Assembly (NCBI GenBank): GCA_035530315.1 | Contig: DATKVA010000160.1 | Span: 11,941 to 75,940 of the forward strand | Direction: 5' to 3' | Source: Rhodanobacter sp. | GTDB taxonomy: Bacteria; Pseudomonadota; Gammaproteobacteria; Xanthomonadales; Rhodanobacteraceae | DNA: 64,000 bases | Shown: piece after piece, positions 22,767-26,159 of the stretch | Layout: every line of letters starts with the position of its first letter | How positions within the stretch are numbered: position 1 is the stretch's first letter | Notes under the pieces: generated by a model | Told to the model about the DNA's origin: nothing | What the model saw: the letters and a program-made list of their open reading frames with translations, nothing else | Databases searched by the model: none | Program-made: the position numbers and the translations under genes

Positions 22767-23557
22767 GGGCTGGTCTTGACATCAAGGGCGTGCGCCTGCT
22801 CGGAATCCGGGAACAGGGTTTGCAATCGCTTGCTGTAAGTCAGGGCGCCTTCCAGGTTCCCCAGGCGGTTTTCGATATCGTGACCGAGCTTCAGCGAGGC
22901 GGGGCTGGGTTTGCTCAGCGCTTCAAAGCGTTGCAGGAAAGCCCGGGCACCGAATGCATTGTTGCGCAGATAAAGCGTATTGGCCAGTTGAAAGAGTGCC
23001 TCTGCGTTGTTCGGGTTATGCGCGATGGCGTCACGAAAACTCGCTTCCGCAGCAGATGGGTGGTGGGCCATCTGCTGGCAGACGCCTTCATTTGTCAGAG
23101 CCACATCGGGCGTCTTGTAGAACGGGTCGGCGATTGCTTTTTTGAAGTATCCGATCGATTCGTCGATTTTCCCGGTATGGCACAGGAAAACACCAAGATT
23201 GTTGTTCGGCGCACCTTTGGCCGGCTCAAGCTCGACCGCTTTGCGGTAATGCAGCTCGGCTTCGGGAAGGTTGTTGATTTTTTCGTAGAGTACGGCAATG
23301 ACGGTATGGGCAGGCGCATAGTCGGGATCGAATTGCAGTGCCATCTCCAGCTTTTGAAGCGCTGTCTGCAGATCGCCGCTGGCCATGTAACGCTGGCCCA
23401 GTTCGGTATGGATGCGTGCCGCGTCCACGGCCTGCGATTTCTTGCTGGTTTGGGGCAGGCTCCTGCCCAGCGAACTGCTGTCCGTGCGCGTCGTGACGCA
23501 ACCGGCCAGAGGCAACGACAACAACAGGCTGAGTATCAGTATCCGGTCAAATCGCAT
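22763..23557 (-). CDS. pilW: Type IV pilus biogenesis/stability lipoprotein PilW (PilF)
   Basis: Lipobox LAGC, TPRs, [14 protein letters not shown]; start ATG 23557. Confidence 0.92.
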
Positions 23558-24677
23558 GCACTGCCCCCTCATCGATCCGTTTGCGAATATCTGCGCTGCG
23601 CCGGGTGCGATCTGTGACCTGTCCCGCAAGTTGACCGCAGGCGGCGTCGATATCGTCCCCGCGTGTACGCCGCAACATGGTCAGCACCCCGGCGTTCAGC
23701 AGCTGCGTCTGGAAATCGTGGATCGCATCTGCGCCGGAACGTTCGAAGCGAGTCCCCGGAAATGGGTTGAACGGAATCAGGTTGACCTTGCAGGTCGGCA
23801 GCTTGCGCATCAGCTTGATCAACTGGCGGGCATGGGCAGGCTGGTCGTTGACACCTTTCATCAAGGTGTACTCGAAGGTGATCGAGGTGCGTGGCTTGCG
23901 TGCGATCCAGCGCTGGCACGCCGCCAGCAGGTCGGCGATCGGGTAGCGTTTGTTGAGCGGCACCAGTTCAGTGCGCAACTCGTCGTTGGCCGCATGCAGC
24001 GACACCGCCAGCGATACATCGATCTCGGCCGAGAGCAGGTCGATCATCGGCACCATGCCTGCGGTCGACAGGGTGACGCGCTTGGCGGCTAGGCCGAAAC
24101 CAAGGTCGTCGCGCATCAACTTCATCGCCCTGACCACGGGCTCGAAATTGGCCAGCGGCTCGCCCATGCCCATCATCACCACATTGGTGATGCGGCGATT
24201 CTGATGGGTGACGTTCCCCAGGTATTTTGCCGCCACCCACACCTGACCGATGATTTCGGCGGTGGAAAGATTGCGGTTGAAACCCTGCGCCCCGGTCGAA
24301 CAGAACTGGCAGTTCAGCGCGCAACCGATCTGCGAGGAAACGCACAGCGTGCCGCGCGTCGGCTCCGGGATGTATACCGTCTCCACGGCGTTGCCCTTGT
24401 CCATCCCCAGCAGCCACTTGTGCGTACCGTCGGTAGCCGCCTTGTCCACCATGGTTTTCGGCGCGCCGATGTAACAGACATCGGTGAGCTTGGCACGCAG
24501 TGCCTTGCCCACGTCGGTCATGTTCTCGAAGTTGTCTTCCAGGTCATGGTAGATCCACTTCATCACCTGCTCGGCCCGATACGGCTTCTCGCCGATCTGC
24601 GTGAAGAAGTCGCGCAAACCCTGACGATCGAAGTCGAGCAAGTTGACCTTGGAGGAACTGGCGACAACCTGGTTCAA
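23547..24677 (-). CDS. rlmN: Dual-specificity rRNA/tRNA methyltransferase RlmN
   Basis: [28 protein letters not shown]; start placed at TTG 24677 because the longer ORF runs into the repeat array. Confidence 0.96.
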
Positions 24678-24697
24678 TGGGTAGCTCTTATTGAAGA

Positions 24698-24876
24698 GTG
24701 CGGCCACGGATGGCCGCGTTTTGATCTTCGCGTTCACGGATGAACGCACTGGTTTTGAAACGTGCGGCCACGGATGGTCGCGTTTTGATCTTCGCGCTCA
24801 TGCATGAACGCACTGGTTTTTGAAACGTGCGGCCCTGGATGGCCGCTTCTTGATTTCCGCGTTCAAGGGCGAATGC
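24698..24876. repeat. Tandem array of ~64-bp units (2 full + 1 partial), six hairpins, REP-like
   Basis: Units start at 24698, 24762, 24827; each has GCGGC-loop-GCCGC and GCGTT-loop-AACGC hairpins. Confidence 0.9.
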
Positions 24877-24882
24877 AAAAAA

Positions 24883-25308
24883 TTACCTGGAAAGCACGTC
24901 GGTCGCAGCAAAGAAGTAGGCAATCTCGCCCTTTGCGGTCTCGACCGCATCGGAGCCATGCACGGCATTGGCGTCGATCGAGTCGGCAAAGTCGGCGCGG
25001 ATCGTGCCCGGTGCGGCTTCCTTCGGATTGGTGGCCCCCATCAGATCGCGATGCGCCAGCACGGCGTTCTCGCCTTCCAGCGCCTGGATCATCACCGGGC
25101 CGGAAATCATGAAATCGACCAGTGCCTTGAAGAACGGGCGCTCGCGATGTACGGCATAGAAGCCCTCGGCCTCCTGCCGCGACAACTGCTTCATCCTGGC
25201 GGCAACGATCTTGAGACCGGCCTTTTCAAAACGTGCGTAAATTTCACCGATGACATTCTTGGCAACGGCGTCGGGTTTGATGATCGAAAGGGTGCGCTCA
25301 AGCGCCAT
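24883..25308 (-). CDS. ndk: Nucleoside diphosphate kinase
   Basis: [26 protein letters not shown]; start ATG 25308. Confidence 0.98.
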
Positions 25309-25454
25309 ACGGGTCAGCTCCGGAAAGACGGATTCATGAAAGATAGTACGAACGGCCTGGCCGCCAGATGGACCAAACTTCACAAGAATTGCGGGTTTAG
25401 CCCACCAAAGTCTGACAGATCCTAGCTCATTCGCAAAGATCCTGTTGCCTGCAA

Positions 25455-25511
25455 CAAACGATTGTTTGACGGCCGAGGAGTTGTCCGCGTATGCTCAAAC
25501 GATCGTTTGAA
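25455..25511. promoter_or_regulatory. Two PsrA-type operator palindromes
   Basis: CAAACGATTGTTTG (25455-25468) and perfect TCAAACGATCGTTTGA (25495-25510), matching CAAAC-N4-GTTTG. Confidence 0.8.
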
Positions 25512-25532
25512 CACGTTCGGCAACCCATCAAG

Positions 25533-26159
25533 ATGACCCCTCACCCGAACAACGTCGGCACAACCAAGGAACGCATACTCAGTGCGGCCGAAGTGCTGTT
25601 TGCCCGCCGCGGTTTCGACGGCGCCTCGCTGCGCCAGCTGACCGCCGCCGCAGGGGTCAACCTGGCCGCGGTGAATTACCACTTCGGCTCCAAGGACAAA
25701 TTGATCGAACAGGTGTTTCGTCGTCGGCTGGACGCTTTGAACGCCCGCCGGCTGGATGCGCTGTCCAGGGTGATCGGTACCGACAACACCACGCTTGAAG
25801 ATGTGCTGGATGCCTATATCCGCCCTGCGCTGGAACTTTCGCATGACGACAATGGTGCACTGTTCATGCGCGTGCTGGCCCGGGCGTTCGCCGAACACGA
25901 CGACACCCTGCGCCACTTCCTGTCCGAGAACTACGGTCATGTGATGCGTCAGTTCACCGCCGAGTTCGCGCGCTTGCTGCCGCAGTTGAGCAAGCCGGAG
26001 CTCTACTGGCGCATCGATCTGGTCACCGGCGCGCTGACCCACGCAATGTCCGGCTTCGGCATGATCCAGCGCAAGAGTGGCGTCAGCGAGAGCGTGCATC
26101 TCGAGCAGACTGCCCAGCACCTGATCCGTTTTGCCGTCGCCGGCCTCAGTCATCCCTAG
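25533..26159 (+). CDS. psrA: TetR-family regulator of fatty acid degradation (PsrA-like)
   Basis: TKERILSAAEVLFA..GF, VNLAAVNYHFGSK; PsrA boxes upstream; heads beta-oxidation genes. Confidence 0.8.
   Translation: MTPHPNNVGTTKERILSAAEVLFARRGFDGASLRQLTAAAGVNLAAVNYHFGSKDKLIEQVFRRRLDALNARRLDALSRVIGTDNTTLEDVLDAYIRPALELSHDDNGALFMRVLARAFAEHDDTLRHFLSENYGHVMRQFTAEFARLLPQLSKPELYWRIDLVTGALTHAMSGFGMIQRKSGVSESVHLEQTAQHLIRFAVAGLSHP

Follow-up and report, generated by a model that had tools for sequence, protein, structure and literature searches.

The REP, BIME and REPIN sequences of the Gammaproteobacteria, which owe their mobility to RAYT Y1 transposases, are short, GC-rich palindromes that occur in tens to hundreds of copies, often in tandem in the spacers of operons, where they are transcribed within mRNAs, and their copy number differs between strains. 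REP and REPIN sequences bear a 5' GTAG or GT[AG]G tag next to the palindrome; REPs are strictly extragenic, and a REPIN is an inverted doublet. The Rickettsia palindromic elements (RPEs, 100-150 nt) are likewise small palindromic repeats, found in frame in essential genes as well as between genes, and no transposase is known for them. The ERIC/IRU, YPAL and Correia-type repeats (100-170 nt), which possess terminal inverted repeats, are intergenic, are co-transcribed with their neighbours and affect the neighbouring mRNA in an orientation-dependent manner. A further type of hairpin array is found in the sponge RNAs of CsrA/RsmA (CsrB, CsrC and RsmX, RsmY and RsmZ), which have their own promoters at one or a few loci and display, on one strand, several hairpins whose CA-N-GGA-N-G loops present GGA. 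The in vivo binding motif of CsrA, as determined by CLIP-seq, is AUGGA in an apical loop (PMC5207318). The Xanthomonadales are not known to have the classical sponge families; the sole RsmA sponge reported in this order, RsmU of Xanthomonas campestris, originates from the 3'UTR of an mRNA and demonstrates that RsmA can be bound by an mRNA-derived RNA in the Xanthomonadales (PMC7694677).

The sequence studied here belongs to a 64,000-nucleotide stretch of Rhodanobacter sp. DNA (the window), in which positions 24691-24883 consist, according to a repeat search, of three tandem direct repeat units of 64-65 bp (spacing, 64 and 65 bp). The second and third units are 91% and 73% identical to the first. 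Each unit contains two hairpins of 18 nt, giving six in the array. The original prediction of tandem ~64-bp units with two stems each was thus borne out, and the six loop positions that it gave are all exact: on the plus strand, henceforth the GGA strand, CACGGATG starts at 24705, 24735 and 24769, CCTGGATG starts at 24834, and the degenerate loops CATGCATG and CAAGGGCG start at 24799 and 24864, respectively. Four of the six loops conform to CA-N-GGA-UG in an apical position, and GGA has been lost from the other two.

Unit 1 (24691-24754; 62 bits with nhmmer and 81.8 bits with the covariance model described below) is composed of hairpin 1 (24700-24717), a T-rich linker and hairpin 2 (24730-24747). 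Both hairpins have a 7-bp stem and a CGGA loop, which reads UCCG on the operon mRNA, with folding energies of -12.4 kcal/mol (on either strand) and -7.9 kcal/mol, respectively. In unit 2 (24755-24819), hairpin 1 (24764-24781) includes a G.U pair on the plus strand, where the mRNA strand has a C.A mismatch, and hairpin 2 (24794-24811) has a degenerate TGCA loop, in which GCA stands in the place of GGA, and pairs better on the mRNA strand. Unit 3 (24820-24883), which like unit 2 was recovered both by the repeat search and by nhmmer, is the most diverged. Its hairpin 1 (24829-24846) consists of a 6-bp stem and a CTGGAT loop, its hairpin 2 (24859-24876) of a weak stem and the degenerate loop AAGGGC, with GGG instead of GGA, and its A-rich end adjoins the stop codon of ndk. 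Since CACGGATG occurs 76 + 84 times in the whole 3.59-Mb genome, its presence three times within 70 nt is not due to chance; the three copies are a consequence of the tandem repeat alone. The array region folds better than shuffled sequences on both strands (z = -3.2 for the plus and -4.9 for the minus strand), and the individual hairpins have energies between about -2 and -12 kcal/mol.

The two flanking genes are located on the minus strand, by gene calls that Pfam confirmed: ndk (24883-25308; Pfam NDK) is the upstream gene of the operon, and rlmN (23547-24677; Pfam RlmN_N and Radical_SAM), which begins with a TTG codon, is the downstream gene. The GGA strand is therefore antisense to both, and the operon mRNA carries its complement, as the original prediction also held. 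The array occupies the entire spacer from the ndk stop codon to the ribosome-binding site of rlmN. In relatives that are free of the element, only about 11-40 nt separate the stop codon of ndk from the start of rlmN, indicating that the two genes form one operon. We infer that ndk and rlmN are co-transcribed without a plus-strand RNA; the array would then most likely be transcribed only within the ndk-rlmN mRNA, as the complement, with UCC or UCCG rather than GGA in its loops. In our assessment, the array most probably represents three copies of a small, non-autonomous palindromic repeat of the Rhodanobacteraceae that has lodged in the ndk-rlmN spacer and travels as a passenger on the mRNA, with no working decoy. 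A dedicated decoy-RNA gene at this position is unlikely, since the CsrA-like loops are on the strand opposite to ndk and rlmN.

The assignment to a repeat family was based on searches of the 3.59-Mb draft genome (65% GC), which RlmN similarity places with Rhodanobacter in the Rhodanobacteraceae. BLAST and iterated nhmmer yielded 48 unit copies, distributed over 32 loci, and a covariance model based on 30 aligned full copies yielded 50. The copies are distributed on both strands, and several of the loci are tandem arrays of two to four units. Five other genomes contain 43, 67, 95, 68 and 68 copies. By the covariance model, the element is present in 74 of 101 Rhodanobacteraceae genomes, covering 27 of 30 genera, and it is conserved across genera at 80+ bits. 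In an order-level sample, 11 of the 13 Rhodanobacteraceae genomes gave a match, and in the other families 16 of 107 genomes gave weak matches, numbering one to four per genome; the family is specific to the Rhodanobacteraceae and hardly occurs outside it. Collections of plasmids and phages contained no match to the element. A cmscan search of Rfam over positions 24000-25600 (both strands, E up to 10) found nothing in the array, and a literature search on Rhodanobacter repeats or a link between CsrA and REP elements returned nothing relevant and no paper describing the family, which thus appears to be undescribed.

The consensus unit is about 57-61 nt in length. Read on the GGA strand, it comprises a lead, TGAAGAGT, with an invariant AGT before the stem; hairpin 1, with a GCGGCC or CCGGCC stem and the loop A-Y-GGA-T; a T-rich linker, T-TTTTGATCTTC; hairpin 2, with a variable stem and the loop A-N-GGA-N; and a final A-run. 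Covariation among the 30 full copies supports both helices: 92% of the cells are paired and there are 36 double changes, values reached by none of 500 shuffles, and slid controls pair in 22-36% of the cells. Within the loop CA-N-GGA-N-G, the columns C, A, G, G, A and G are each conserved in at least 95% of the copies, and both N columns vary. This loop consensus on covarying stems, in a genome that encodes csrA, supports a second possibility raised in the original prediction, namely a REP-like family that mimics CsrA sites; the CsrA-like GGA loops between ndk and rlmN are a property of the element family. At a GC content of 65%, a genome-wide scan for further GGA-hairpin clusters lacked specificity.

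Comparison of 80 related rlmN loci showed that the contents of the ndk-rlmN spacer vary among relatives. There are no copies in four of the loci (L005, L007, L008 and L012), one copy in three (L006, L081 and L009), two to three in L004 and three in the present genome. The nearest relative, with 97% RlmN identity, has two to three copies in this spacer; two Rhodanobacter genomes and Dyella sedimenti have a single copy each, the orientation of which is invariably that seen here, and spacers without the element occur in other Rhodanobacter, Dyella and Luteibacter genomes. Judging from this distribution, the array arose by insertion and has since expanded in this genome. Alignment of filled and empty ndk-rlmN sites revealed no target duplication.

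These data bear directly on the main proposal of the original prediction, an Rsm-sequestering RNA on the plus strand. Independent transcription of positions 24691-24883, giving a CsrA/RsmA sponge like CsrB, RsmY or RsmZ, would be consistent with the four apical CA-N-GGA-UG loops, the spacing of ~30 nt between the GGA triplets of a unit and the presence of csrA. The T-run after hairpin 1 could end such an RNA, and RsmU is the only sponge so far reported in the order (PMC7694677). However, a sigma-70-type consensus scan of the plus strand upstream of the array found no promoter-like site, and the Rfam search for a sponge RNA gave no match in the array. The ~50 copies of the unit, at 32 loci, lie in both orientations and also within genes, a distribution that the original prediction had itself regarded as speaking against a sponge. 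Moreover, close relatives lack the array in this spacer, and GGA has decayed in two of the six loops here and in about 15% of the antisense copies family-wide. Like the Csr/Rsm sponges, the array bears several GGA hairpins on one strand; unlike them, it has no gene or promoter of its own and is antisense to its transcription unit. We therefore consider the sponge proposal extremely unlikely. CsrA binding by the ndk-rlmN array is also unlikely, because it is antisense, has lost two of its six GGA triplets and is not preceded by a promoter-like site on the plus strand. For this locus the result is deflationary: a new regulatory RNA gene in the ndk-rlmN spacer is not supported, and the stretch should be annotated as a repeat.

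Another function for the plus strand, an antisense terminator array in which hairpin 1 and its T-run stop plus-strand transcription from entering ndk, would seem very improbable. A consensus scan identified three terminator-like plus-strand sites in the array, compared to 1.6 expected for the whole 1.3-kb region, but the T-run is short and interrupted, and the open reading frames assigned as genes just upstream are all on the minus strand, with no plus-strand gene identified. In addition, the element is found in the same orientation on the sense strand of rpsC-rplP, nuoM-nuoN, sdhA-sdhB and coxB-coxA; its occurrence in this orientation inside obligate operons suggests that the hairpin and T-run are unlikely to terminate efficiently.

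As a passenger repeat on the ndk-rlmN mRNA, the array would form up to six local hairpins, comparable to the intercistronic structures of REP and BIME sequences, which may slow the 3'-to-5' decay of the ndk part. Folding also predicts a small 5-bp hairpin (24685-24698, minus strand), in which CUCUU at the end of the element pairs with AAGAG, a Shine-Dalgarno-like sequence located 7 nt before the TTG start of rlmN, and this pairing could partly mask the ribosome-binding site. Protection of the upstream mRNA, together with some masking of the rlmN ribosome-binding site, would be the most plausible effects of the array. The same arrangement recurs elsewhere: of 16 antisense intergenic loci in the present genome (G000), 8 have AAGAG 1-5 nt after the element end (CTCTTCA when read on the mRNA), with the next start codon 7-10 nt further on. 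The two sequences either belong to the element as an additional small hairpin, its third, or reflect a preference for insertion just upstream of ribosome-binding sites.

Such effects might also be adaptive, the stable UCCG-loop hairpins serving as selected punctuation that sets the relative stability or translation of ndk and rlmN. The three UCCG loops and stable hairpins on the mRNA, the exact fit between stop codon and ribosome-binding site, the AAGAG pairing at half of the antisense loci (8/16) and the frequency of copies in ribosomal-protein spacers and, apparently, ATP-synthase spacers are all in accord with this proposal. On the other hand, the element is absent from ndk-rlmN in close relatives, its copy number there ranges from 0 to 3, and in-frame insertions in genes and the use of both orientations fit a spreading element better. 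The base preceding GGA in the loop is T in 46-61% of the copies family-wide and C in only 11-28%. We regard selected punctuation as fairly unlikely and prefer the passenger repeat, although the element could be selected, given its conservation across genera, its frequency in highly expressed operons and its recurrence in the same spacer and orientation in Rhodanobacter and Dyella. A reading of the mRNA loops as UNCG tetraloops was rejected: it holds for three loops of this array and not for the family, and since the loop base on the GGA strand is mostly T (U), UNCG is not a conserved feature.

The majority of the copies, in both orientations, are located in spacers of housekeeping operons, and many of these spacers are short. 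The genes for ribosomal proteins S7 and S11 were confirmed by Pfam as flanking genes, and from the termini of the encoded proteins we take further contexts to be rpsM-rpsK-rpsD-rpoA-rplQ, rpsL-rpsG-fusA-tuf, atpH-atpA and atpG-atpD. Genes outside the window were called on codon usage by a caller trained on this genome; the context classes in other genomes are approximate. A repeat conserved across a whole bacterial family is found inside ribosomal-protein operons and inside apparent ATP-synthase and respiratory operons. Among five genomes, about 87 loci place UCC on the mRNA, compared to about 45 with GGA on the mRNA (p about 3e-4, with approximate binning); in all such counts, copies of one array, and orthologous loci, are not independent of one another. 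In a separate sample, restricted to the one best locus per genome, 20 were antisense and 6 sense. The sense copies lie within operons that have to be read through, i.e., rimP-nusA (in three genomes), sdhA-sdhB, rpsC-rplP, tuf-secE, nuoM-nuoN, coxB-coxA, trmD-rplS and yajC-secD. Avoidance of terminators was rejected as an explanation for the 2:1 excess of antisense copies, since sense copies are present inside obligate operons. A replication-strand cause was sought from the coordinates of the copies in complete genomes, which gave no clean two-replichore pattern. In two complete genomes (G092 C1 and G058 C1), the listed copies in the first 1-1.5 Mb are all on the minus strand and the remainder are mixed; part of the orientation bias may be linked to replication.

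At seven of the 32 loci, the element is inserted in frame within a gene (mutS, dnaG, valS, pheT, recJ, ppsA or dapE). In mutS, two units (L134:3763-3882; G000 C116:27762-27881) are translated in frame as an insertion of ~40 residues, which aligns with a gap relative to residues 376-399 of E. coli MutS. One unit each is also present in a seemingly equivalent long open frame of three further genera (L135:7726-7782, L136:2593-2648 and L137:7833-7886); these frames adjoin recA-recX-alaS-csrA and are candidate mutS genes. The other copies within genes are located in six further essential or housekeeping genes, recJ (L236), ppsA (PEP synthase; L237), pheT (two units; L238), dnaG (L239), dapE (L240) and valS (L241); five are read in frames of the UCC strand and two on the GGA strand. 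With their insertions, RecJ, PpsA, PheT, DnaG, DapE and ValS match the NCBIfam equivalog models from end to end.

In this respect the element resembles the RPEs, which insert in frame into conserved genes in the same manner as observed here for MutS, DnaG, ValS, PheT, RecJ, PpsA and DapE. The likeness drawn here is one of behaviour. The hosts of the present element are unrelated, free-living Gammaproteobacteria, its unit is ~60 nt long rather than 100-150 nt, and most of its copies are intergenic. In-frame insertion into essential genes is best known from Rickettsia, and here it occurs in free-living bacteria. With the REP, BIME and REPIN sequences the element shares the short GC-rich palindromes, the copy number, the tandem arrangement in operon spacers, the location within mRNAs and the variation between strains. 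It differs from them in lacking the GTAG-type tag, the place of which is taken by TGAAGAGT, in the direct order of two different hairpins as opposed to an inverted doublet, and in its seven loci within genes. Like the ERIC/IRU, YPAL and Correia-type repeats, the element is largely intergenic and would be co-transcribed with its neighbours, but it is shorter and lacks their terminal inverted repeats. Nor does it have the features of a MITE: TGAAGAGT... at one end and ...CGCAAAA at the other do not form an inverted repeat, and no target-site duplication is visible at ndk-rlmN. Searches of these kinds having revealed neither a transposase nor terminal inverted repeats nor a target duplication, the mobility of the element is deduced from its distribution alone.

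The genome contains two RAYT-like Y1 transposase genes. Both are flanked not by the element but by other, long inverted doublets tagged with GTAG or GTGG (L002:1241-1316 and 1974-2049; L003:493-582 and 1141-1221). These doublets are classical REPINs, i.e., a second, unrelated repeat system in the genome. Among the 101 genomes, there was no co-occurrence of Y1 transposases with the element. Y1_Tnp is absent from genomes that contain 14 to 68 copies of the element (G030, G037, G008 and G041), and in one genus (g12) Y1_Tnp is present in all five genomes and the element in none of the five. Near-identical IS200-type Y1 transposases of 152-153 aa are present in 12-18 copies in G090 C1 (e.g., 189180-189536) and G021 C1; their number does not track that of the repeat.

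The relationship of the family as a whole to CsrA can be considered separately from the array between ndk and rlmN. The loop consensus of hairpin 1, AUGGA closed by C-G and A-U pairs, matches the CsrA motif obtained by CLIP-seq (PMC5207318), and each unit offers two GGA hairpins ~30 nt apart. The csrA gene is present in this genome and in all 101 genomes of the family; since these include genomes with and without the element, its presence is uninformative in this regard. The match of the loops to the CsrA consensus, together with the presence of csrA, means that the GGA strand may have a role at the RNA level. The sense third of the family could accordingly comprise CsrA sites that control the downstream cistron, as a portable response module, or that titrate CsrA as a distributed sponge, the antisense copies being silent.

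Sense copies are indeed located just before start codons in obligate operons, and in three genomes (G000, G090 and G092) GGA is intact in 68 of 69 sense loops compared to 131 of 153 antisense loops (p = 0.0018), despite the many compensated stem variants among the sense copies. When counted by locus in the same genomes, defective GGA triplets occur at 1 of 26 sense and 17 of 64 antisense loci (p = 0.018). In a held-out set of two further genera, however, GGA is intact in 26 of 31 sense and 32 of 39 antisense loops (p = 1.0), and in the three genomes the sense copies preserve further conserved columns better as well. Conservation of GGA that depends on orientation was thus rejected, being neither replicated nor specific to the GGA columns. 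The comparison of G.U with A.C pairs as a test of the functional strand was not significant in this genome (11 to 6), nor when divided by orientation (sense, 9:5; antisense, 21:23). Furthermore, two thirds of the copies are the wrong way round for such a module. Binding of CsrA by the sense copies would be possible but is unsupported, and we judge a CsrA-responsive module at the level of the family to be unlikely. If it were real, the sites concerned would include the spacers before nusA, rplP, sdhB, coxA, nuoN, secE, secD and rplS, and the element would provide a CsrA module or sponge to bacteria whose order has no known classical Csr/Rsm sRNAs. More broadly, it may be asked whether small mobile repeats can give rise to CsrA regulation or take advantage of it.

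Two further arrays occur in other operon spacers. The rimP-nusA spacer of G000 contains a sense array of four units with eight intact GGA loops (L104:1313-1559; G000 C1:49854-50100). In genus g13, the same spacer has two units in G037 (L126:1503-1625) and at least one in G092 (L218). The four-unit array is the largest found with GGA on the mRNA and would be the best candidate for a test of CsrA binding. In the opposite orientation, three antisense units fill the spacer before a 704-aa gene (L085:135-322; G000 C1:43186-43369), which from its N-terminus we take to encode polynucleotide phosphorylase; the preceding gene is presumably rpsO. In E. coli, the spacer between rpsO and the polynucleotide phosphorylase gene is a known site of control by RNase III.
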